Shown here in pieces: positions 8,106 through 19,431 of a stretch of 32,000 nt of DNA (the first letter of the stretch is position 1; every line of letters begins with the position of its first letter). The notes beneath the pieces were generated by a model. That model was not told the DNA's origin, ran no database searches, and saw nothing but the letters and a program-made list of their open reading frames with translations. Both the position numbers and the translations under genes were made by a program. Source of the DNA: Thalassolituus hydrocarboniclasticus (GTDB taxonomy: Bacteria; Pseudomonadota; Gammaproteobacteria; Pseudomonadales; Oceanobacteraceae); assembly GCF_025345565.1 (NCBI RefSeq), contig NZ_CP054475.1:3233129-3265128 (forward strand), read 5' to 3'.

Positions 8106-9842
8106 TCAATAGTAGCTGAGAATCTCTTTGATACCCGTATTCTGTTCAACCTCAACCGATTTATGTACTGTTTTTACCGGTTTAACAATGGCATCCCGGC
8201 CCAACTTATAACTTTGCTCTTTGACGACCACCTGATAAGCCTTATTAAGCATCAGGGCACGTTCTGGCTCCGGCAAAAGCAAGTGACCGATATTCTCAGA
8301 CAGTTTTTCAAATTCCTGTAACTTAGGGCTTCGGTCGTCATTAAAGAACTTATTCAGGACTTCTTTATTATCACGGAATTCATTACCGCTTGGGTTTTGC
8401 TCAAGATAATAAGCATACTCGCCGCGCCCATCCTCACGCATGGGATCAGCGACACCTTCGAGTCCTTTTTCCAGCCAGTGATACCAGCCATTGCGGAAAC
8501 TTCCATGATCAAACTTACGGAAAAATGAAATAGTAGTGTCATTCGATGCGCCGATATAACCGTGACATCCGGTACAGAAATACGTTTCTTCGTAGGTCTG
8601 AGGACGTAACTGACCGGCATCATCCTCAATAAAACCCTGATATGTCCATCCCTGAGCAACCGTTAATCCGGACTCCATATTTCCCAGAGCAACTTTAGTA
8701 CGCCATGGAAAGTCGTGACGTTCTTTAATTTCATCATTAACAATACTGCGTAACTGATAGTAGTTTCTCCAGGAGTTCTTTCTGGAGTAACGCACTTCTT
8801 TCATGCGTCTGGCCATGACAACTTTGCCATTGTTAACGTCCAGGTAGCGTACAGTATGAAGAAACTCAGTACCTTCAGGGTATAAGCGTGCTGCCAGATG
8901 AATGTCACCCTGCTCCAGAAGCTCCTTAGCCTGACCAACATAACTCATCATACGGTTTTCTTTTGGCGCCCAGTCATACTTAATGTATGTCGCCTTAGAC
9001 AAGGTTCCATTTTTATCCAGATCAACGCCATATAACGTTTCGTCAGTTTTTTCGATCGGAATATCTTTTTCCTTTATCAGTGATTCGACAATGGCAAAGT
9101 TAATTCTGTAAGCCAGCAGATCAAATTCTCCGTCTTTATTACGGCGAAAAGCTTCCGGAAGCCGGATCATCACATCATCCGTCGAACCGTTCGTTGGCAT
9201 AAAAGTTCCCAGAAACGGGTAATAGGCAAATACTCGCCAGCCGGTATATTCACCTGCCGGCGAGACATCAAAACCCTGTTCATCAAAAGAAAAATATGCA
9301 TCAGGGATATAACCATCCCAACGGCCGTTTTTATTACGGTCCCATTCTTTTGGCAGGTTGTTCAGTTTGGCAGCCAGGATAATACCGCCATTATCAGAGA
9401 AGTAGTTATCTTCTCTGACGTAATTAATAATCTCCTGATCTGAAACGTTAGCAATATCGTCTGTGCGATCTTTAAACAGATTATCCCAGTTGTTTTTCAG
9501 CCCTGTTTCAGGGAAGTTATAGCCGACCTGAACATCGGTATCATTAAGATAATTCGGTCGTTTACTTTCGGTATGACACGCATAACAAGGATTCTGAACT
9601 CCCTGTTCAGAAACCGGGTCGGTATAACATTGTGGCGGAATGTAAGCCACAGGATTATCCGTAGCATCAGCAGTAAGATCAACCAGTGTGCCGAAGGTAT
9701 AGCCAGTGGCAACCGGGTTGGTTTTATTAGCCGCAGCGGAATCATCCGCCGACATCATTGATCGCTCACCATCAGACGATGTAAAACAACCAGATAAAAA
9801 CAGGGTAAACCCGCCAACCAACAACAATGAGTGTGTTTTCAT
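8106..9842 (-). CDS. Lipoprotein with two CxxCH c-type haem motifs, function unknown
   Basis: 578 aa. Lipobox LFLSGC, CxxCH motifs NPCYACH and FCTGCH. Not recognised as a known cytochrome family. Confidence 0.85.
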   Translation of the reverse strand: MKTHSLLLVGGFTLFLSGCFTSSDGERSMMSADDSAAANKTNPVATGYTFGTLVDLTADATDNPVAYIPPQCYTDPVSEQGVQNPCYACHTESKRPNYLNDTDVQVGYNFPETGLKNNWDNLFKDRTDDIANVSDQEIINYVREDNYFSDNGGIILAAKLNNLPKEWDRNKNGRWDGYIPDAYFSFDEQGFDVSPAGEYTGWRVFAYYPFLGTFMPTNGSTDDVMIRLPEAFRRNKDGEFDLLAYRINFAIVESLIKEKDIPIEKTDETLYGVDLDKNGTLSKATYIKYDWAPKENRMMSYVGQAKELLEQGDIHLAARLYPEGTEFLHTVRYLDVNNGKVVMARRMKEVRYSRKNSWRNYYQLRSIVNDEIKERHDFPWRTKVALGNMESGLTVAQGWTYQGFIEDDAGQLRPQTYEETYFCTGCHGYIGASNDTTISFFRKFDHGSFRNGWYHWLEKGLEGVADPMREDGRGEYAYYLEQNPSGNEFRDNKEVLNKFFNDDRSPKLQEFEKLSENIGHLLLPEPERALMLNKAYQVVVKEQSYKLGRDAIVKPVKTVHKSVEVEQNTGIKEILSYY

Positions 9843-9863
9843 AAACCTACCAGAAACAAAAAA

Positions 9864-9881
9864 GGGCAGCCGTAGCTGCCC
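9864..9881 (-). terminator. Intercistronic terminator-like hairpin between the PhoX-like and CxxCH genes
   Basis: Minus strand GGGCAGC-TACG-GCTGCCC-TTTTTTG, about 20 bp upstream of the CxxCH start codon. Confidence 0.65.
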
Positions 9882-9901
9882 CTGATGTTAAATATCAAAT
9901 A

Positions 9902-11734
9902 TTACTGTACGTTTACAGCCGGGAAAGGCCCAACGTAACCGGTGTAAGCACGGGCTTCACCTGAACCGGTATCTTTATCGTCGTCTGTCTCAACATATGG
10001 ATGCTGAACAACTGTCGTCAGATAAGACCAGCCATTGATGTTCGGATACCAGTATGGAGAGGTGGTTTCTGAGCCATACGGGGTGGTCAGAATGCGGGTC
10101 AGTTTTTTCTCTGAAGCAAAATCATAAGCCCACAAAGCATCATTCTGGTGTGTAGTACCTGCATCTTCACCGATGATCAGCATGTCATAACCTGAGATAT
10201 AGGTAACGTTATCCGGCTCGGCGATGCCATCAATATGGCAGCTGTTTTTGGCTTCAAAACCAGCAACCTGTGGGTCAGCAATACTGACCGGACGTCCGGC
10301 GACCAGGCCATACATGTTGTGAGCCACGTAATTGGAGCCGATTGCAGAGTCAGGACCAAGGTCCATCTGATAGACCGCGCCACATTTGTTTTCTTCATCC
10401 AGCTGAATATGATCCGGGCCACCGACATCACCGGAAGTACCAGCCAGCATGCCTTTAGTAACGTTGGACATACCTACGTACATTTTGTGACGCTTGCTGT
10501 CGTAGGTAATCCCTTCTTCTTTACGGAATTCAGTGGTTGCACCCAACATGGCTGCATAGCGACGGGTTTCCAGACGCGAAGCTACTTTTTCCATACCGGC
10601 TTTAACTTTCAGACACTCCTGGCCAACACCATTGGCATTGATCGACGTAAATCCTGCGCTACACGCATTGCCAACCGGATCTTCTGAATCAAAGATGTCG
10701 TTAAAGGTAACCTTGGTTTTACCATTGGTACCGTGCACATAATCGCTGATTTCAGCATTGGTAGCATGACCCAGACTGATCCAGGTCAGATCAGCTGCAC
10801 CAATACCGGTAGAATCTGTCTGGTTCCATTTAGCAGCGTAAGTAGTACCAGCACTCAGATCACCGGCGGTATCAGCCACAAACATATACAGACCAACGTT
10901 AGTACCATCATCAGTCATATAGGTTGTTTTTGAATCAGGCATTACATAAGCCAGTTCGTATGCCAGACGCCCCATTGCATAATGTTTTTCAGTAGTAACA
11001 GCAGCATTTTCCGCAACAGTTACTTCAATATTCCAGCCGTAGAAGTATGGGTTCCATTCGCTCGCTTCAGCATAGTAGTCGAGCATAGAAGCAGAATAAC
11101 TGCTCAGAGCAGCTTCAGCACTGGTTGGCTGTTTTTTAGCATCCGGTTCATATTCCTCTGACGCCAGATGAGTAGTCCATGGAGTAACAGAACCGGCACA
11201 GTGAACCCAGCCACCATCAATGCCTGATTGATCAATCTGAGTTAAGTTAGCAACGCTCAGCTTGCCGTTGTCTTTATCCTGATTCAGCTCCATCAGGAAC
11301 ATGGCACCAGGGCGATCTTCAAACTGAGAAACAGAATACAGTTTATTGCCAATTGGCAGCAGAGAAGTAAATTCGTTGGAATCAGAAATACGGACTGAAC
11401 CATCGTCTTCAGTCAGAACAGTACCCGCTTTATTGACCAGCTGACCAAATGCAACGCCAGAAATAACATCACCTGAGCGTGCCAGTACGTTATATTCACC
11501 GGCATAAATTTTGCCGTTTACAATGGCTTGTGAAACTGTAATTTCACGCTTTTCGGCATCGGTGGCCGGTGCGGCAACGCCTACAAACTTCATAAAGGCC
11601 GGGCTGCCGTTTACGCCATCAGCCCCGGTGTCACCATTAGAACCATCATCACCACCACAGGCTGCCAGGCTCGCGGCCGTAGCAATAACCATCGCCTGCA
11701 AAAGACGCTTTTTCTGAAAAAGTTCCATCGTCAT
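9902..11734 (-). CDS. PhoX/DUF839-like lipoprotein, putative phosphatase
   Basis: 610 aa. Lipobox SLAACGG then a short collagen-like GSNGDTGADGVNGS stretch. PhoX-family-like GGWVHCAGSVTPWTTHLASEEYEPD, RRYAAMLGATTEFRKEEGITYD, HIQLDEENKCGAVYQMDL and EPDNVTYI. Confidence 0.75.
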   Translation of the reverse strand: MTMELFQKKRLLQAMVIATAASLAACGGDDGSNGDTGADGVNGSPAFMKFVGVAAPATDAEKREITVSQAIVNGKIYAGEYNVLARSGDVISGVAFGQLVNKAGTVLTEDDGSVRISDSNEFTSLLPIGNKLYSVSQFEDRPGAMFLMELNQDKDNGKLSVANLTQIDQSGIDGGWVHCAGSVTPWTTHLASEEYEPDAKKQPTSAEAALSSYSASMLDYYAEASEWNPYFYGWNIEVTVAENAAVTTEKHYAMGRLAYELAYVMPDSKTTYMTDDGTNVGLYMFVADTAGDLSAGTTYAAKWNQTDSTGIGAADLTWISLGHATNAEISDYVHGTNGKTKVTFNDIFDSEDPVGNACSAGFTSINANGVGQECLKVKAGMEKVASRLETRRYAAMLGATTEFRKEEGITYDSKRHKMYVGMSNVTKGMLAGTSGDVGGPDHIQLDEENKCGAVYQMDLGPDSAIGSNYVAHNMYGLVAGRPVSIADPQVAGFEAKNSCHIDGIAEPDNVTYISGYDMLIIGEDAGTTHQNDALWAYDFASEKKLTRILTTPYGSETTSPYWYPNINGWSYLTTVVQHPYVETDDDKDTGSGEARAYTGYVGPFPAVNVQ

Positions 11735-11848: not shown

Positions 11849-12523
11849 TCAGTAACGCCGTACCTGGACCACCACACGACGATTAGCAGCACGCTGCTGT
11901 TCAATTGTCTGGGCCTGATCCACTTCTTTCGGTCTGCTGTCAGCAAAGCCTGACGCCTTAAGACGTTCCTTGGCAACGCCCTGACTCATCAGATATTTAA
12001 CCACATGGGTCGCTCTGGCTGCTGATAATTCCCAGTTGGAGGGAAATTGCTCATTGGCAATGGGAATATCATCAGTGTGACCTTCCACTTCAATCATATG
12101 TGTTTCGTGGCTGGTATCGCGGATAATCGCGGATACCTTTTCCAACAGGGGAACTGCATCGGCTTTTAAATCGGCGGAGCCGGAGTCATAGAGTGCAACG
12201 TTGGCAAACTCCACTTTAACCCCTCGCTGATCAAGGACCACCGACAACTGATCCTGCAGGCCATTCTGCTCGATATAATCATCCAGCGCTTTTTTAATAT
12301 CGGTAAAGGGCGTTGTTTGCTGTCGATCTGTCATTACCGTCGACAATCCTTCCTGCAGCGCTTCTACTTTGCCCTGATCGATATCAGAGACCGACAGAAT
12401 CATCACAAAAAAAGCCAGCAGCAGCGTAATGGCATCAGAATAAGTGATAAGCCAGGAACTGGAGGAATCGTCAAAATTAGGCCGGCGACGGCGCAGGCCA
12501 CGACGCTTTAACGCATCATCCAC
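11849..12523 (-). CDS. motB: MotB-like stator protein with OmpA peptidoglycan-binding domain
   Basis: 224 aa. SSWLITYSDAITLLLAFFVMILSVSDID with the Asp at residue 30. C-terminal OmpA domain IEVEGHTDDIPIANEQFPSNWELSAARATHVVKYL...ANRRVVVQVRR. Confidence 0.88.
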   Translation of the reverse strand: MDDALKRRGLRRRRPNFDDSSSSWLITYSDAITLLLAFFVMILSVSDIDQGKVEALQEGLSTVMTDRQQTTPFTDIKKALDDYIEQNGLQDQLSVVLDQRGVKVEFANVALYDSGSADLKADAVPLLEKVSAIIRDTSHETHMIEVEGHTDDIPIANEQFPSNWELSAARATHVVKYLMSQGVAKERLKASGFADSRPKEVDQAQTIEQQRAANRRVVVQVRRY

Positions 12524-12546
12524 GGCATGCCTCCGGGTATATCAGC

Positions 12547-13347
12547 TCAGAGTTCTTCATCGGCAAGCTGCAGACGAACCGATGGTTTAAGAAAGGCATT
12601 CAGCCTGTCCTGAATAAACAAGGCATCACGCTTTTCCGCCAGCATAACGAAACCTTCGGTAATCAGCTGATGGCGGTAATAAAGTGCTTCCTGTTTTTCC
12701 GTAACCTGATTGGCTGCCGGTTTAAAAAATAAATTCGCCAGTACCACACCATAAAGCGTGGTAATTAATGCCAGCGCCAGCCCCTGACCTAACCCGGCCA
12801 TATCACCGTTCAGGTTATCCAGCATGATAATCAGACCAATAATCGTGCCGACCATACCAAAACCCGGAGCGTAGGTTGCCATGGTATTCAGCACCTTGGA
12901 TTCCAGCGTATGCCGCTGCCAAGTGGCATCCATGGCATCACTCAGCATTATGCGGATTTCGTGGTTTTTATAACCCGAACCAATCAGCTCCATCGCATGA
13001 CACAGGTATTCGTCTTTACTTTCTTCTTTATTCAGACTCTGCTCAAGGGCACTGATACCACCCTGACGATACAGGTTGCTCCAGTCAACAAAGCGGCTAA
13101 CCAGTGTGCGCAAATGCTTTTGCGATGTCGGAGTATGAAAAAAAGTCTGCACCATACTACGCATAGCAATCAGAACATCACCGCTGCTGTAGCTGATCAG
13201 TGAGGCCGCTAACGTACTGCCCAGTACCAGCGCCAGACTGGAAAGACTCATAAATATCTGGTGATGATCCGTACTGCTGACGATGGCAAATGCAAACAGG
13301 CTGATACCGGCGCAAAAGCCGATCAGGGTGCTGAATGAAAACATCAT
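12547..13347 (-). CDS. motA: MotA-like stator proton/sodium channel protein
   Basis: 266 aa. LYRQGGISALEQ region and YAPGFGMVGTIIGLIIMLDNLNGDMAGLGQGLALALITTLYGVVLANLFFKPAANQVTEK. Confidence 0.9.
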   Translation of the reverse strand: MMFSFSTLIGFCAGISLFAFAIVSSTDHHQIFMSLSSLALVLGSTLAASLISYSSGDVLIAMRSMVQTFFHTPTSQKHLRTLVSRFVDWSNLYRQGGISALEQSLNKEESKDEYLCHAMELIGSGYKNHEIRIMLSDAMDATWQRHTLESKVLNTMATYAPGFGMVGTIIGLIIMLDNLNGDMAGLGQGLALALITTLYGVVLANLFFKPAANQVTEKQEALYYRHQLITEGFVMLAEKRDALFIQDRLNAFLKPSVRLQLADEEL

Positions 13348-15261
13348 TTATTCCTGCCCCTGCGACTGTTTAGCAATAGGCGCCAGCTCTTCCATAGAGA
13401 AACGTCCGGCTTTCAGTACATCACGCATTTTCTGTACAACCTGTTTGCGTCCGGCTTCTACCGTTTCCTGAGCAATATCTGCTTCGGTTGTTTTAAGCTC
13501 TGCAATAACGGCTGCGCGCAATTTAGCAGGCAAGGCTGCCAGCACATGGCGTTTAAATTCCGTTGATGTATGACATAAGGCAGCGGCCAGAACACCGCGA
13601 TCTATATCACGCAGCTCATTCGCCAGTACCCGCTCCGGAGCGCGGGCCATATCGGCAAAGGTAAAATAGACCTGACGCAGTCGATAATAGGTTTCCGGCT
13701 TTTCACCTTTTAAGGTTTTCAGTAAGCGGGTTTCTTCAGCACTGTTCATGTTATCCAGCATACGTATCAGTACCGACAGGCCATCGGCACTGATATTCTC
13801 GAACGTTGGCACCGACAGTGACGCCTGTGCCAGACGGTCCGCCACGTCGCGGAAAGCAGAGACAGGGAGCGTATCGAACTGGCCGAGTTCATAAGCCACC
13901 GCCGCCTGATCTTTTTCTTTCATGCGCTGAATAATATCAGCAGCCCGTTCAGCCGGGAGCTGCGACATAACCAGAGCTTTGATGCGGGTATCCTCATCTT
14001 TAATCAGATACAGCACCTGTGAATCATTGAGTTTCTCCAGAAACGAAAACGGTGAATTACCCGCCGAGTTATCAGCTAAGCCCTGCTGAAGACGCTGCTG
14101 GAAAGCACTGAGTGATTGCAGCAACATCTCATTGCTCCAGTCAGTTTCGCTGCGCTGCTGCTCCAGCTCCTGCCACTCGGTACCGGTTAATGCGGGAACA
14201 AGGCTGCGCAATAACGGCTTACCCATCACTTCAAGCATTGCCGCTGCTTCAGAATACTGCTGTCGCTGCAGTCCCTGTTGCACCAGCTGCTGGAATAACT
14301 GTGGCTGAGACAATCCGGATGAAACCAGCGCCTGACGCACTTCATTAACCTGCCGTTTCAGTTCAACCTGCTGGTCATTTTCCTGTGCAACCACGGCACG
14401 ATTATCGCTATAACCGGTATCGGAACTTGCAGTTAAAGGAGCACTTACTGCAGGAATCATCCGGCGGCCTAACGCACGCATCCCGAAACCAATCACCAGC
14501 AATACCAGTAAAAGTGAAGCAAGCCAGAACCACAGCGCGTATTCATCCCAGATACTGAGCACAACAGGTTTTTCATTCTCCAGACGTTTAAATTCGGTAC
14601 GGACAATATTCAGCGTATCGCCACGTAATTCATCCAGCTGGGACTTGCGGGTAATCAGGTTACGCAGGAATTCAACCTGTTCATCATTCAGGGTACGGTC
14701 CACAACCAGAGTGATGGTCATTTTCTTGATGCTGTTGCGAAAGCCCAGTGTTTTCTCACGAATGGTCTGAATTTTGGTTTCGGCTTCCTGTTTCAGCTGG
14801 TCGGCATAATTGAGCACATCGGTACGCTCACGCTCCAGCTGTTGCACTTTATTCTGCAGCGCCTGAATTTCCTGCTCGTTTTCTTTCAAAAGCGGAAGCT
14901 CATTAACCGGAAGGCCTGGCAATGCTTCCAGCTCATTGTCATCAAAGGTTTTGATCGTACGTGGACGGATTTCCGCGACTGGCTGACGCACAGGAGGCTT
15001 AGGTAAAGCAGACCCAGGCGATGCCGGCTCATTGCTTTTCACCATAGTTCGGGTCTTTTGCAGTGTTGCTTCGACCTGAATAATAAAGCGGTTATCGCCC
15101 AGGTAAGATTTGATATCCCGTGCCAGACGCGCTTCCATTTCATTCTTAAAGCGCGCCTCTTCCAGATCATCTTTTTTAACAGGCACTTCATAAGCCTGCT
15201 CTTCTGCAACAACCAGAAGAGAGACAAAGCAAAGTAAGACAGTAAGAATTCTCATCAGCAA
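13348..15261 (-). CDS. Membrane-anchored protein combining FliF-like periplasmic domain, one TM and FliG-like C-terminal domain
   Basis: 637 aa. Signal peptide, then KKMTITLVVDRTLNDEQ...RGDTLNIVRTEF (FliF RBM-like), TM LWFWLASLLLVLLVIGFGM near residues 243-262. C-terminus has LPAERAADIIQRM and ERVLANELRDIDRGVLAAALCHTSTEFKRHVLAALPAKLRAAVIAEL...RKQVVQKMRDV (FliG-like). Confidence 0.75.
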   Translation of the reverse strand: MLMRILTVLLCFVSLLVVAEEQAYEVPVKKDDLEEARFKNEMEARLARDIKSYLGDNRFIIQVEATLQKTRTMVKSNEPASPGSALPKPPVRQPVAEIRPRTIKTFDDNELEALPGLPVNELPLLKENEQEIQALQNKVQQLERERTDVLNYADQLKQEAETKIQTIREKTLGFRNSIKKMTITLVVDRTLNDEQVEFLRNLITRKSQLDELRGDTLNIVRTEFKRLENEKPVVLSIWDEYALWFWLASLLLVLLVIGFGMRALGRRMIPAVSAPLTASSDTGYSDNRAVVAQENDQQVELKRQVNEVRQALVSSGLSQPQLFQQLVQQGLQRQQYSEAAAMLEVMGKPLLRSLVPALTGTEWQELEQQRSETDWSNEMLLQSLSAFQQRLQQGLADNSAGNSPFSFLEKLNDSQVLYLIKDEDTRIKALVMSQLPAERAADIIQRMKEKDQAAVAYELGQFDTLPVSAFRDVADRLAQASLSVPTFENISADGLSVLIRMLDNMNSAEETRLLKTLKGEKPETYYRLRQVYFTFADMARAPERVLANELRDIDRGVLAAALCHTSTEFKRHVLAALPAKLRAAVIAELKTTEADIAQETVEAGRKQVVQKMRDVLKAGRFSMEELAPIAKQSQGQE

Positions 15262-15264
15262 CTC

Positions 15265-15966
15265 CTACTGCTTCAGCCGGTCAAGGCTGGCCTTGACCTG
15301 ATCAAGACTGGGATCAAGTTTAAGCGCCTGCTCCCAGCTGGAACGGGCTTCCGGCAACAGGCCCATCTTGTAATAGATACTGCCTTTTAATGCATGCGCC
15401 TGAGCGGAATCCGGTAAATTATCGAGTGCTGCATTGGTTTCATCCAAAGCCTGCCAATATTGTTTTTTATAGAATAATGACTGGGCATTGAGAATGTGCT
15501 TAGTGGTATTTTCAACCCTCTGATTTTTGTTTTTTTCCTGCTGCTGAGCATTCTCATTCAGATTTTCATGAATTTCTTCAGCCGTCTTATCATCCAGCAT
15601 TTCGGTTATGTCTTCGTCGGCCTCCTGAGGTATTTCTGCTTCTGGCTGAACCGTCTTACCCGGCAGATCCATGACGAATTTCACGTCACTGTCACCGGCA
15701 TCCAAAGTCAGCAACACATCGTAACCATCACCATAACGGTGAATATGCATCAGGCCATGCTGTTTTTTGGCTTGCTCAGCGATTTCAGATTGTTTCTGGA
15801 TTTCTTCTTCTACAACCTCTGTTTCAGATACCCAGCCGGAATTACCATAACCTTTAACCACTTCATTAGTACGCTGATAGCTACAGGCGGCAGGCAAGAT
15901 AAAAACACTCAGGCTTAACAACCGGAACATCATGCGTACCTGGCATTTTACGCAGAATTTCATCAT
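15265..15966 (-). CDS. TPR-containing lipoprotein
   Basis: 233 aa. Lipobox-like LPAAC and C-terminal TPR units (AQSLFYKKQYWQALDETNAALDNLPDSAQAHALKGSIYYKMGLLPEARSSWEQALKLDP). True start may be the internal MMFRLL. Confidence 0.8.
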   Translation of the reverse strand: MMKFCVKCQVRMMFRLLSLSVFILPAACSYQRTNEVVKGYGNSGWVSETEVVEEEIQKQSEIAEQAKKQHGLMHIHRYGDGYDVLLTLDAGDSDVKFVMDLPGKTVQPEAEIPQEADEDITEMLDDKTAEEIHENLNENAQQQEKNKNQRVENTTKHILNAQSLFYKKQYWQALDETNAALDNLPDSAQAHALKGSIYYKMGLLPEARSSWEQALKLDPSLDQVKASLDRLKQ

Positions 15967-17036
15967 CAGAAACGTACCCCCAGCGTCAGGTCATAACTTG
16001 AACCGCCGAATTTCCCAACCTCTTCATAACCGTCTTTTTTATCCCAGCGGGCATCGACTTCTGGCAGGTAGGTGACGCCAAAATCCATAAAGCCATCACT
16101 GAAAAACGGGAATTCAAATCCAAAGCGGAAGATAAGGGAGTTGCTGTCATTGAAGAAGGCCTGCCCCATGCCCAGATACACCCGGGTATCGATCAGCTCA
16201 TCCATACTTGGAATATCGGCAATAATCCGGCCCTCGAGATTTATTCCTGATACGTTAAATAAATCGGTACCGGAGAAATTTCGGAAATATTCAATCGCCA
16301 GAGTATATTCCAGACTGTCATCAATACTGGTGGTTTCACGCCGGCGCAGACCAAATACAGTTACGCCATTAACTTCTTCAGAGCTGCCATCTGTCAGGTT
16401 TTTCCGGCTGCCATCAATCCCCCAGGCACCCACTGTTAATTCATAGTTAACCGCATCGAATCCCTGCTCTTCCTGTTCACGGGTCGTTATCTTCGAATAT
16501 TCCTTAAGCCACAACAGCTGATTATTCCGGCCGTCAACCATGCGCAGGTTGATGGTAAATTTGTCTTCGTGTACTGAAGCATTCCAGAAAATAAAAGCAT
16601 CCGCGCGCACGTGTTTGGCCAGAGCCCGGAGAGCCTGATTGGATTCTGCTGCGTGGGATATTTCCAGCTTATCGGCACGCATCGCTACCTGTGTAGTCCG
16701 GCACTCAATACACTGAATAACCTCAAAGCGTCCGCTATCCATAATCCGGTGCATCAGTTTATTTTCAATCATCAGATGCACCTGCTTGGGAATCTGACGA
16801 TGGAGACGATCACCATTATGATAAAGGGCAACACGGCGGATATTGCTGTCCAGATCGATAAGTTCTTCCAGAACCAGCGTTTTATCATCATCCAGCAATT
16901 GCCCGAAACCGGTATATAAAGAGGGGGCCGGTGAACTCAGTGGCAGCTCGGTTTTGTTATCGGCACAGGCCAGAGAGGGCAGTAACAGCAGGCTGATAAT
17001 CAGCGATAGCTGTTGGAATAGCGTCGGGGAGTTCAT
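15966..17036 (-). CDS. Exported CsgG/FlgO-like and outer-membrane beta-barrel-like protein
   Basis: 356 aa. Signal peptide ending LACA, N-terminal TolB/CsgG-like alpha-beta region (LMHRIMDSGRFEVIQC...ALAKHVRADAFIFWNASV). C-terminus ends in aromatic SSYDLTLGVRF, typical of outer-membrane barrels. Confidence 0.6.
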   Translation of the reverse strand: MNSPTLFQQLSLIISLLLLPSLACADNKTELPLSSPAPSLYTGFGQLLDDDKTLVLEELIDLDSNIRRVALYHNGDRLHRQIPKQVHLMIENKLMHRIMDSGRFEVIQCIECRTTQVAMRADKLEISHAAESNQALRALAKHVRADAFIFWNASVHEDKFTINLRMVDGRNNQLLWLKEYSKITTREQEEQGFDAVNYELTVGAWGIDGSRKNLTDGSSEEVNGVTVFGLRRRETTSIDDSLEYTLAIEYFRNFSGTDLFNVSGINLEGRIIADIPSMDELIDTRVYLGMGQAFFNDSNSLIFRFGFEFPFFSDGFMDFGVTYLPEVDARWDKKDGYEEVGKFGGSSYDLTLGVRF

Positions 17037-17354
17037 TCAATATCCTTTCGTCAGGAGTCCTGATTTTTCTCCCTCCAGCTTAGTTCATATTTCAGAAACT
17101 GAAGTTTTCGCCAGCACTTATTCCGTTTACTTAACATGAGTTAAACAATCAGCACTTTAATACCTTTACTGATTCGCCAATTTTTTTACGGCAAATACCG
17201 CAGACGGGCGCAGATATCCAGCCTCTCTGTTTCCTTCATTTGCAGAACTTTTAAAACAGTGAAAATCTGCCTTTTTTCTGGCGATTTATTCTCGAAAAAG
17301 CGACAGAAAAACATTAAATCGTTTTTGTTCGTACAATCAGACTCAGTTCAGAGA

Positions 17355-17672
17355 CTAACGGCGCAGCATTTCCGCAACTTCACGATCTGTCTGCACCGCC
17401 AGACGCAAATCCCGGGCGGAAATTCCCTGTACGTCGTGACTCCACCACAACACCTCCAGCCTCCCCCAGCTTAAAGTCAGCTGTGGATGATGATCCTGCT
17501 GCTCGGCATGCACAGCAATATTATTAGCCAGATGCAGGGCTGCGCTGAAATTGTTCAGCGTTATGCTGCGCAGCAATGCCGGCACACCGGCAACCTGGGT
17601 TAACTGCCAGTGCGGATGCTCCGCCAGCCAGCTCTGCAATTGCGTGTCATCTATACGGTCGTCAGTCATCAT
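17355..17672 (-). CDS. phhB: Pterin-4a-carbinolamine dehydratase
   Basis: 105 aa. LRSITLNNFSAALHLANNIAVHAEQQDHHPQLTLSWGRLEVLWWSHDVQGISARDLRLA matches the PCD pattern. Confidence 0.8.
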   Translation of the reverse strand: MMTDDRIDDTQLQSWLAEHPHWQLTQVAGVPALLRSITLNNFSAALHLANNIAVHAEQQDHHPQLTLSWGRLEVLWWSHDVQGISARDLRLAVQTDREVAEMLRR

Positions 17673-17773
17673 CCATCTCCCCGGGCAGAATATTCACATT
17701 AGCGGGAAAATCCGGCTTTGCAGAGTCTTTTCTGCGCCAATGTCATTCATACGATGGCTTTACGACAGGCACA

Positions 17774-17799
17774 AAAAAAGGAGCCGGAGCTCCTTTTTT
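17774..17799. terminator. Terminator after fumarase
   Basis: AAAAAAGGAGC-CGGA-GCTCCTTTTTT inverted repeat. Confidence 0.85.
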
Positions 17800-17832
17800 A
17801 TGTATCGCGGTTTAACGCTTATGCGCCTGCGA

Positions 17833-19341
17833 TCAGACTTCGGTTGCGTTAATCTTGGCGTACCAGGTTTGCGGGCCGGTCTTATGTACCGACTCACCTT
17901 TGGTATCCACGGCCACGGTTACCGGCATATCTTCGACTTCAAATTCGTAGATCGCTTCCATGCCCAGATCATCAAAGCCAACAACCTTAGCGCCTTTGAT
18001 TGCCTGAGATACCAGATAAGCAGCGCCACCAACGGCCATCAGATACACAGCTTCGTTATCTTTAATGGCCTCAATGGCGATGTCGCCACGCTCAGATTTA
18101 CCGATCATGCCCAGCAGGCCGGTTTTTTCCAGCACGGTACGGGTGAACTTATCCATACGGGTCGCAGTCGTCGGGCCAGCCGGACCAACCACTTCTTCGC
18201 GTACCGGATCAACCGGGCCCACGTAATAGATAAAGCGGCCTTTCAGATCGACCGGCAGCTCTTCACCTTTAGCGATCATATCGACCATACGCTTATGCGC
18301 CGCATCACGGCCGGTCAGCATCTTGCCGGACAGCAGGACGGTTTCACCGGTTTTCCAGTCTTTTACGTCTTCCGGAGTGATGGTGTCCAGATTCACACGG
18401 CGTACAGAATCACCCACTTCCCAGGTGATCTGTGGCCAGTCTTCCACTTTCGGCGCTTTGAGAACCGCCGGGCCGGAACCATCCAGCACAAAGTGAGTGT
18501 GACGGGTTGCGGCACAGTTAGGAATAATCGCCACCGGCTTGTTTGCCGCGTGAGTCGGGTAATCAGCCACTTTGATGTCCAGTACAGTGGTCAGACCACC
18601 CAGACCCTGTGCACCAATGCCCAGTTTGTTCACTTTTTCGAACAGTTCCAGACGCAGTTCTTCGGCGCGGTTCTGTGCACCACGAGCCTGCAGTTCCTGA
18701 ATGTTGATTGGCTCCAGCAGTGCTTCTTTAGCCAGCATCATGGCTTTTTCAGCGGTACCACCGATACCAATGCCCAGCATACCCGGCGGACACCAGCCAG
18801 CACCCATTTTAGGCACCTGTTCCAGCACCCAATCAACGATGGAGTCAGACGGGTTCAGCATGGCGAACTTGGATTTGGCTTCAGAGCCGCCGCCTTTGGC
18901 TGCCACATGCACGTCCACGGTGTTACCCGGAACCAGTTTCATGTGGATGATGGCCGGCGTGTTGTCTTTGGTGTTGGCACGTTTGCCATCCGGATCAGCC
19001 AGCACAGAGGCGCGCAGCACGTTGTCAGGATGGGTGTAAGCGCGGCGTACGCCTTCGTTACACATATCCTCAACACTCATGTCGCCTTCGAACTTCACGT
19101 CCATACCAATGGTCAGGAACACGGTAACAATACCGGTATCCTGACAGATCGGACGGTGGCCCATGGCACACATACGGGAGTTGATCAGAATCTGCGCCAT
19201 GGCGTCTTTCGCAGCCTTGGACTCTTCGCGCTCATAAGCCGCATGCACGGCATCAATGAAGTCTTTCGGGTGATAGTACGAGATGTACTGCAGTGCATCA
19301 GCGACGCTCTGGATCAGGTCTTCTTGCTTGATCACAGTCAT
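17833..19341 (-). CDS. fumA: Class I fumarate hydratase
   Basis: 502 aa. ICQDTGIVTVFLTIGM, GGGSEAKSKFAMLNPSDS, MGAGWCPPGMLGIGIGGTAEKAM, GPAGPTTATRMDKFT, AVGGAAYLVSQAIKGAKVVGFDDLGMEAIYEFEVEDMPVTVAVD. Confidence 0.95.
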   Translation of the reverse strand: MTVIKQEDLIQSVADALQYISYYHPKDFIDAVHAAYEREESKAAKDAMAQILINSRMCAMGHRPICQDTGIVTVFLTIGMDVKFEGDMSVEDMCNEGVRRAYTHPDNVLRASVLADPDGKRANTKDNTPAIIHMKLVPGNTVDVHVAAKGGGSEAKSKFAMLNPSDSIVDWVLEQVPKMGAGWCPPGMLGIGIGGTAEKAMMLAKEALLEPINIQELQARGAQNRAEELRLELFEKVNKLGIGAQGLGGLTTVLDIKVADYPTHAANKPVAIIPNCAATRHTHFVLDGSGPAVLKAPKVEDWPQITWEVGDSVRRVNLDTITPEDVKDWKTGETVLLSGKMLTGRDAAHKRMVDMIAKGEELPVDLKGRFIYYVGPVDPVREEVVGPAGPTTATRMDKFTRTVLEKTGLLGMIGKSERGDIAIEAIKDNEAVYLMAVGGAAYLVSQAIKGAKVVGFDDLGMEAIYEFEVEDMPVTVAVDTKGESVHKTGPQTWYAKINATEV

Positions 19342-19431
19342 GACGGGTTCTCTCTCATAGGCTCGCGGGTGTAAAAACGCCCACGTCGGTGGGCGTTACA
19401 GTCGGCCTATTGTACCCCAACTACTGCCGGT

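Follow-up and report, generated by a model that had tools for sequence, protein, structure and literature searches.

A cluster of five genes lies on the minus strand between positions 11849 and 17036 of a 32-kb window of the Thalassolituus hydrocarboniclasticus genome, the window being the whole stretch of 32,000 nucleotides that was analysed. The five co-directional open reading frames (ORFs), named here g1 to g5 in the order of transcription, nearly abut one another: g1 and g2 have one base in common (TGATG), g2 and g3 are separated by 3 bp, g3 and g4 by 0 bp (TAAATG), and g4 and g5 by 23 bp. Based on AlphaFold2 (AF2) modelling, Foldseek search and a C-terminal Phe, g1 (15966..17036) is predicted to encode an exported outer-membrane protein of 356 amino acids (aa). 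Pfam matches to the tetratricopeptide repeat (TPR) and a lipobox Cys mark g2 (15265..15966) as a TPR lipoprotein of 233 aa. The third gene, g3 (13348..15261), was assigned by Pfam, by profile search against the PDB and by fold search as a naturally occurring fusion protein, in which the C-terminal half of FliF is joined to FliG. The last two, g4 (12547..13347, 266 aa) and g5 (11849..12523, 224 aa), were assigned by Pfam, NCBIfam and PDB alignment as the A subunit of a MotA/PomA-type stator and the B subunit of a MotB/PomB-type stator. Read from its TTG codon, the g3 frame has 637 aa. Since the identical database protein, which is on record for T. hydrocarboniclasticus, has 635 aa, translation probably starts two codons further on, at the ATG at 15255, and the g2/g3 gap is then 9 bp.

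An original prediction, made from the letters of the DNA alone, had described a minus-strand cluster of an exported protein with a barrel-like C-terminus, a TPR lipoprotein, a membrane protein with FliF-like and FliG-like parts, MotA and MotB. The reading frames and the junctions are as it gave them, and the five protein assignments stood up to closer analysis, g1 by its signal peptide, modelled barrel and C-terminal Phe, g2 by its TPR match and lipobox Cys, and g3 to g5 by the searches named above. The matches lie well outside what chance would give.

The g3 protein begins with a cleavable signal peptide, followed by a periplasmic part (residues about 20-236; 14554..15204, minus strand), one transmembrane (TM) helix (residues about 237-267; 14461..14553, minus strand) and a helical cytoplasmic part. 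The limits of the periplasmic part come from the AF2 model, the alignment to FliF and conservation, and those of the TM helix from hydropathy and AF2; positive residues stand on the C-terminal side of the helix, which is accordingly the predicted cytoplasmic side. Profile, fold search and conservation together delimit a cytoplasmic FliG-like region (residues about 291-622; 13396..14391, minus strand) with equivalents of the N, M and C domains of FliG. Three Pfam families match g3: FliG_M (PF14841, 1e-15), FliG_C (PF01706, 4e-14) and, over residues 52-224, YscJ_FliF_C (PF08345, 5e-5, with 24.3 bits against a cutoff of 23.8). There was no Pfam match to PF01514. A family profile built from 28 members and run against the PDB found Aquifex FliG (3hjl) at 5.5e-21 and Salmonella FliF (6scn) at 3.5e-9, the latter over FliF residues 235-534. 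The fold search gave the same picture. The cytoplasmic region was aligned with full-length FliG over 317 of 321 columns, the last domain was superimposed on FliG_C, including the stator-bound copy 8ucs_H, at a root-mean-square deviation of 1.6 Å, and the periplasmic part matched the S-rings and the third ring-building motif (RBM3) of FliF with TMt values of 0.4-0.48.

In the AF2 model of g3, which has a predicted local distance difference test (pLDDT) score of 76.6 and a predicted template modelling (pTM) score of 0.31, the signal peptide leads straight into the RBM3-like fold, with no TM1. The periplasmic topology is alpha-beta-beta...beta-alpha-beta, split by a disordered stretch rich in Pro and by a helix of 45 residues. 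In FliF structures, the place of this insert is that of the beta-collar. An LPGLP motif in the Pro-rich disordered insert (residues 76-166, window positions about 14764-15036) is near-invariant across 67 sequences; its sole deviation is one G116A (G116 is Gly in 66/67), and it is kept even at 22% overall identity. The periplasmic part ends in an invariant RGD-x-LN(I/V) strand that is common to FliF. This strand before the TM helix, RGDTLNIVRTEF, aligns with RGDLLNVLSVKF of Vibrio FliF, just ahead of TM2, and the RGD is present in all 67 sequences, distant branches included.

On the cytoplasmic side, the torque helix of g3 carries K580 at the position of R281, E588 at the position of D289, K590 and E593, each of which is kept in 60 of the 67 sequences, with E588 counted as E or D. 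The FliM-binding EHPQR motif, in contrast, reads E423-D-T-R426 in g3, and its H, P and Q are conserved nowhere in the family. The loss of this motif agrees with the absence of FliM and FliN. Databases label g3 as "FliG C-terminal domain-containing protein" or "putative FliG". The protein nevertheless departs from the soluble FliG of about 330 aa in its 637 aa, its signal peptide and its TM helix, and scores 60.7 bits with the FliG equivalog model TIGR00207, below the cutoff of 226.7. On sequence and model, g3 is best described as a protein in which the last ring-building motif and the second TM helix, from the C-terminal half of FliF, are naturally fused to a complete FliG-like protein.

The two genes that follow g3 encode the stator. 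With Pfam, g4 matches MotA_ExbB (PF01618) at 1e-23, and g5 matches MotB_plug at 1e-14 and OmpA at 5e-18. The NCBIfam models for MotP, PomA and MotA give 130-163 bits with g4, whereas TolQ gives 19 and ZorA 17; g5 scores 130-180 bits with the MotD, MotS and MotB models. The closest solved relatives of g4 are Clostridium MotA (8ucs, 6ysf) and Vibrio PomA (8bri), and g5 can be aligned with the B subunits of the solved stators 6ysf and 8ucs, its essential Asp falling within LITYSDAITLLL. Both the stator and the FliG_C domain of g3 thus have their closest solved counterparts in a single stator-FliG complex, 8ucs. In the alignment of g4 to 8bri and 8ucs, LYRQGGISALEQ stands opposite AARKGGFLALEE of PomA (8bri), and R94 and E102 of g4 are for this reason equated with R88 and E96 of PomA, which correspond to R90 and E98 of the E. 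coli protein. In the family alignment, the R94 position is R, K or H in 69 of 70 sequences and the E102 position is E or D in 68 of 70. Also kept in g4 are both channel prolines and Thr at the positions of the PomA Na+ site. P161 and T168 are found in 70 of 70 sequences, and P210, T196 and T197 in 68 of 70, the two remaining sequences being gapped. The three Thr residues are present in Clostridium MotA as well, hence they do not discriminate between Na+ and H+. The g5 protein has a TM helix with the essential Asp30, which is invariant (60/60 sequences), a plug and an OmpA-like peptidoglycan-binding domain. These features characterize g4 and g5 as a predicted ion-conducting stator of the PomAB/MotAB type with all residues for ion flow, the plug and the peptidoglycan anchor. 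The NCBIfam equivalog cutoffs were missed by both proteins, however, with the best scores at 163 bits against 394 for g4 (MotP) and 180 against 283 for g5 (MotD). By these scores, the pair is a diverged stator lineage and the equivalog of no named flagellar stator.

The first two genes encode the putative outer-membrane partners. The g1 protein has a signal peptide, a periplasmic alpha/beta domain (residues about 68-183) and a small C-terminal beta-barrel (residues about 195-356). In the Foldseek search with the AF2 model (pLDDT 76.4), the barrel, of the 8-strand type, matched OmpA, NspA, OmpX and OmpW at E~1e-5, and the N-terminal alpha/beta domain matched the C-domain of LpoB (TMt 0.64) and also TolB-N, placing it in the FlgO/FlgT_M/LpoB/TolB-N fold group. 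The protein ends in a beta-signal, DLTLGxRF, with the C-terminal Phe in 55 of 55 sequences. No Pfam family matched g1 above threshold, its profile had no sequence match in the PDB, and every annotation source calls it hypothetical. Below threshold, FlgO (PF17680) scored 12.3 bits with g1 against a threshold of 22.6; such sub-threshold FlgO matches were found in 24 of 24 family members, the best at E = 7e-4, and FlgT_M matches in 7 of the 24 members tested, all below the Pfam cutoffs. We considered g1 as a lipoprotein and rejected it, because the Cys following its signal peptide lacks conservation. The g2 protein is different in this respect. Its lipobox Cys is found in 65 of 65 sequences and Asp never occurs at +2 in the sampled sequences, and for these reasons g2 probably resides in the outer membrane as a lipoprotein. 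Its middle region is acidic, and the TPR repeats occupy the C-terminal part; for these, TPR_1 (E=1e-7), TPR_2 and TPR_11 are above the Pfam cutoffs.

The linkage of the five genes was examined by tblastn with all five proteins against 78 genome and metagenome loci. Every locus of sufficient length has all five genes in colinear order on one strand, and members are missing only at contig ends. In locus L009, the module is intact at 39-46% g3 identity with wholly different flanks. In L013-L016, it is intact at about 22-24% identity in g3, 33-35% in g1 and 37-41% in MotA. A Fibrobacterales metagenome-assembled genome (MAG; L079) and L080 contain the same five components in the permuted order g3-g1-g2-MotA-MotB, their g1 homologues being found by the family profile at 6e-9 and 6e-12. 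This conservation of content despite rearrangement across phyla is strong evidence that the five genes form a functional unit. In comparisons of close relatives, Ka/Ks was 0.02-0.18 for each of the five. As a set, the genes are co-inherited across phyla and subject to purifying selection.

An exhaustive search for the fusion protein returned 2040 proteins at E <= 1e-3, 63 of them at E <= 1e-30. Architectures were counted in the best 150 representatives of 50%-identity clusters. Full-length proteins of 520-800 aa made up 130 of the 150; a TM helix in the middle of the protein was found in 127 of the 130, and in 103 of the 130 an RGD precedes this helix by no more than 80 residues. Among the named carriers are Vibrio nigripulchritudo, V. 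agarivorans and other Vibrio species, along with Oleispira, Bermanella, Bacterioplanoides and a Deltaproteobacteria MAG. The module is patchily distributed among taxa, and within Vibrio it was found in only a few named species. A sister subtype, consisting of a TPR protein, a FliF/FliG-like fusion and a protein of about 210 aa, occurs in L081 (8197-11535) and L082 (8034-11597), which come from a Deltaproteobacteria MAG and a metagenome. The proteins of about 210 aa are homologous to each other (E = 9e-18), have no Pfam match and end in YVNF/YYNF; each is probably a small outer-membrane barrel. A PilZ-domain gene lies divergently upstream of the sister subtype in L082. The search with a distant alignment also returned five metagenomic proteins of 731-829 aa with FliG_M and FliG_C (P0385-P0389), a further non-canonical FliG architecture.

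The window has 22 other substantial ORFs, and no gene for FliM/FliN, FlhA/B, FliPQR, flagellin, rod, hook or export was found in this set. These ORFs include genes for a thiolase, PurU, an ammonium transporter, a CBS protein, PpnN, a CXXCH lipoprotein, PhoX, a pterin dehydratase, fumarase, DUF2846, superoxide dismutase, Maf, GspD/C/N and a ceramidase. Flagellar genes are likewise absent from the inspected flanks of related loci. Oleispira antarctica is a carrier of the module; its genes for the flagellum and for chemotaxis occupy one separate region, and its genome is described as having "two stator systems MotAB and PomAB" (PMC3759055). One of these two stator systems may be the module's own. 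The possibility that the cluster is the edge of a flagellar locus was rejected on the flagellar-free window. The original prediction was thus borne out at the level of the locus as well, both in the lack of flagellar genes around the cluster and in the co-occurrence of the five genes, which holds in all loci long enough, between unrelated flanks and even with permuted order in another phylum.

The 318-bp intergenic region 5' of g1 (17037..17354, minus strand), which presumably bears the promoter, lacks the sigma-28 and sigma-54 consensus. In a pattern scan of 52 orthologous upstream regions, no sigma-54 site was found, nor any sigma-28 site at the first spacing tested; the second sigma-28 spacing gave 2 weak sigma-28-like sites, both from one near-identical locus pair. 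Membership in the flagellar regulon was rejected on the lack of either consensus in the 52 regions. Main-branch loci show conserved synteny, with the module set between housekeeping genes of the chromosome. The neighbours differ in three distant loci that also diverge from one another (L013, L015 and L016), where the module abuts a coupling protein resembling SXT-TraD, a weak match to TraE and large lipoproteins that are conserved. The neighbours in L013 (1-6501 and 12463-16778) and their equivalents in L015 and L016 include an unknown protein of 511-525 aa and lipoproteins of about 1045 and about 393 aa. They may belong to a conjugative element or to a larger machine, and the gene content suggests that the module of the distant branch is carried on or beside a conjugative element. 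If so, conjugative carriage could explain the patchy distribution. A plasmid- or phage-borne module was not supported: tblastn against the 72,556 plasmids of PLSDB returned ordinary FliG genes only, and the viral contigs of IMG/VR contained no module. PADLOC returned generic ZorB and weak ZorA matches only, with no ZorC/ZorD-like or other effector.

How would such a set of proteins work? We favor, as the probable reading, a self-contained machine that spans the envelope, is built from flagellar-motor parts and is independent of the flagellum, in which the stator turns or pushes a FliF-FliG ring linked to the outer-membrane partners. The g3 protein would oligomerise through its RBM3-like domain into an inner-membrane ring, with the torque helices of FliG_C on its cytoplasmic face. 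Ion flow, possibly of Na+, through the peptidoglycan-anchored stator would rotate the MotA pentamer against these helices, and contacts between stator and rotor through the charge pairs R94/E102 and K580/E588 would turn or push the g3 ring. The Pro-rich segment and the long helix of the g3 periplasmic domain could extend in the direction of the outer membrane, with g1 and g2 acting there as a bearing or anchor, or as the driven output. No chemotactic switching would be expected, because the FliM-binding motif is lost and FliM and FliN are absent. The predicted locations, namely inner membrane, peptidoglycan binding, outer-membrane barrel and outer-membrane lipoprotein, fit a trans-envelope assembly, and the R/E of MotA and the charges of the FliG torque helix, which are conserved in the main branch, fit a working stator-rotor contact. 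Ring formation by a fused protein has a precedent in engineered FliF-FliG fusions, which assemble into rings (PMC10941966, PMC11481574). Surface motility, polysaccharide movement and envelope energisation, which had been suggested as outputs, have no specific support.

Several observations weigh against this proposal. Because g3 has neither RBM1 and RBM2 nor the beta-collar of FliF, formation of a ring by g3 is an extrapolation. The AF2 models of g1 and g3 are of moderate confidence only (pLDDT about 76, with the low pTM of g3). In the most distant branches, the torque-helix charges of g3 align poorly and vary, and so do R94 and E102 of g4 (K or Q for the former; D, Q or K for the latter). The sister subtype of L081 and L082 has no adjacent MotAB or g1, and the linkage to MotAB is not universal. 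Finally, the named cultured hosts (Thalassolituus, Oleispira and Vibrio) are all flagellated, which is compatible with a flagellum-related role.

The last point leads to an explanation in which the module is an accessory of the ordinary flagellum of the host, with a spare stator, after the manner of the dual-stator systems with MotAB/PomAB or MotCD, and with g3, g1 and g2 as extra basal-body parts, such as a stator dock, a brake or an H-ring/disk-like outer structure similar to FlgO/FlgP/FlgT. It would account for the flagellated genera of the named cultured carriers, for a stator of the flagellar type and for the FlgO-like periplasmic domain of g1 in 24 of 24 members, and it agrees with the Oleispira genome paper, which assigns MotAB and PomAB to one flagellum (PMC3759055). 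We nevertheless regard it as unlikely. The module adjoins flagellar genes in none of about 80 loci and has no sigma-28/sigma-54 promoter consensus. An MS-ring-like/FliG-like protein of its own would compete with FliF and FliG rather than add to them, and the EHPQR motif for FliM binding is lost. A flagellar accessory is also hard to reconcile with a module carried by only a few named Vibrio species and occurring in a Fibrobacterales MAG and beside conjugation genes. The related idea that the cluster is what is left of a second flagellar system, now decaying and without present function, for which the presence of only a subset of flagellar parts might speak, is effectively refuted by the Ka/Ks of all five genes, by the invariant catalytic and interface residues and by the intact, tightly coupled frames in about 80 loci across phyla.

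A non-rotary transducer similar to Tol-Pal or TonB, in which g3 forms no ring and pulls on or tethers the outer-membrane partners for upkeep or remodelling of the envelope, has a lower probability and is in our view quite unlikely. The parts list is indeed similar on general knowledge of Tol-Pal: a pair of MotA/TolQ and MotB/TolR type, a single-pass inner-membrane protein whose periplasmic part has a long helix and a segment rich in Pro, a g1 domain resembling TolB-N/LpoB, a TPR protein in the place of CpoB and an OmpA-like peptidoglycan binder. The coupling is what differs. Ton and Tol couple via the TM helix of TonB or TolA, whereas here the cytoplasmic charges of MotA and the torque helix of FliG_C are conserved; the periplasmic domain of g3 is a FliF ring-building motif with the RGD signature of FliF, and the TolQ/ExbB models score 13-19 bits as compared with 130-163 for the flagellar stators. 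Very improbable, finally, is a cargo of mobile elements that serves conjugation or a Zorya-style defence. PADLOC found no effector gene beside the generic ZorB and weak ZorA matches, plasmids yielded only ordinary FliG genes and viral contigs none, and the main-branch module sits in conserved synteny among chromosomal housekeeping genes. What speaks for such a cargo is the patchy distribution and, in three divergent loci, the adjacent SXT-TraD-like coupling protein, weak TraE-like match and large lipoproteins. A Zorya or other defence system was rejected on the same PADLOC result.

The envelope-spanning motor that we favor would have several implications. To our knowledge, FliG is the only known torque partner of flagellar-type MotAB/PomAB stators. 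Surveys treat plug-bearing stators with a torque interface as flagellum-specific (PMC12505986; bioRxiv 10.1101/2024.07.22.604496), and a 2025 survey leaves rotor proteins without filaments unexplained (PMC12199754). No description of the module was found in the full-text literature, the coverage of which omits most subscription journals, so that a prior description is possible. There is a substantial chance that the module is a new class of rotary envelope machine. A wider proposal, which we hold tentatively and at somewhat less than even probability, is that it represents an unrecognised class of stand-alone, ion-driven rotary machine with a FliF-FliG ring, its own stator and outer-membrane partners, working without any flagellum and horizontally spread into several phyla, in one branch next to conjugation genes, and that this machine is either a living analogue of a pre-flagellar rotor-stator core or a repurposed flagellar core. 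The operon pairs a flagellar-type stator with a minimal FliF-FliG rotor and outer-membrane components, with no export or axial parts, and so bears on how a flagellar motor could have existed, or could persist, as a functional sub-assembly. With cultured Vibrio nigripulchritudo, V. agarivorans, Oleispira and Thalassolituus in the family, it is a genetically tractable candidate for a non-flagellar rotor-stator function and, as a motor minimised by nature, is suited to structural and biophysical studies. On the practical side, genes of the module that are annotated as FliG, MotA and MotB can inflate predictions of motility or of "dual stators" from genomes.

Other features of the window lie outside the module. 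An isolated type II secretion trio is located on the minus strand (gspD 24554-26467, gspC 26474-27343 and gspN 27377-28147); the window contains no gspE-M, and the type II secretion operon appears split. At 8106-11734 (minus strand), a 578-aa CXXCH lipoprotein with weak Cytochrome_P460 and paired-CXXCH matches adjoins a PhoX-like lipoprotein. L003 and L004 have ORFs of about 620 and 551-564 aa after the module, which resemble this pair in size and position, and the pair is outside the conserved module. A 607-aa ORF at 17551-19374 (plus strand) runs antisense to the fumarase gene (17833-19341) in a moderately GC-rich stretch and is almost certainly a spurious shadow ORF.

Among known systems that use motors of the MotAB family outside the flagellum are the Agl-Glt machinery of Myxococcus and GldLM/T9SS (type IX secretion system) of Bacteroidota, in which the motor is coupled through the envelope to TPR proteins and outer-membrane barrels. 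Their motors are, however, of the TolQR/ExbBD or GldL type and work without FliG or FliF, and the module in turn has no gliding or T9SS genes. Zorya (ZorAB with ZorC/D) likewise uses a peptidoglycan-anchored MotAB-family motor outside the flagellum. The ZorA models give 14-18 bits with g4, which at 266 aa lacks the long tail of ZorA, and effectors of the ZorC/ZorD (or ZorE/F/G) kind are absent from the module. Tol-Pal (TolQRA, TolB, Pal and CpoB) is similar to the module in its 5:2-type ion motor, single-pass protein, TolB-N-like fold, TPR protein and OmpA-like binder. The module differs in its flagellar-type stator, in coupling that is predicted to go through a cytoplasmic FliG domain, and in having neither a beta-propeller nor a TolA-like domain. 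When tested with the Tol-Pal families, g4 scored 18.8 bits with TolQ against a cutoff of 221, and there was no match to the TolA, TolB or Pal family, the only resemblance being the TolB-N-like fold of g1.

In combining an outer-membrane protein with a lipoprotein, the g1/g2 pair is reminiscent of FlgO/FlgP. Compared with FlgO, FlgP and FlgT of Vibrio, g1 has the sub-threshold FlgO matches in 24 of 24 members and the FlgT_M matches in 7, whereas the scores remain below the Pfam cutoffs, g1 has a C-terminal barrel in addition and g2, with its TPR repeats, is not of the LPP20 type. Engineered fusions of FliF to FliG are a further parallel, earlier ones having been made also in Salmonella. The g3 protein has in common with the engineered Vibrio fusions (PMC10941966, PMC11481574) that FliF is covalently joined to FliG. 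Those fusions form MS/S-rings, and the fused architecture is thus compatible with ring formation. They are laboratory constructs with full-length FliF, whereas g3 is natural and retains just the C-terminal half of FliF, in which an unrelated insert takes the place of the beta-collar.

The comparison with the core of the flagellar motor itself shows both sides most fully. The module lacks FliM/FliN, the export apparatus, rod, hook, filament and P/L rings. Its FliF and FliG are one polypeptide, from which RBM1, RBM2, the beta-collar and the EHPQR motif are gone; it has a dedicated outer-membrane barrel and a TPR lipoprotein, and it stands outside any flagellar locus or regulon. On the other hand, the stator is homologous down to the plug, the Asp, both prolines, the rotor-facing R/E and the OmpA-like anchor. 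The rotor protein has FliG N-, M- and C-like domains, with Lys and Glu of the torque helix at the positions of R281 and D289, and the RBM3-TM2 segment of FliF with its RGD. Its proteins fall below the equivalog level of FliG, MotA and MotB and do not include a full FliF, and by its parts the module is a system that would function like the rotor-stator core of the flagellum, reused outside the flagellum.

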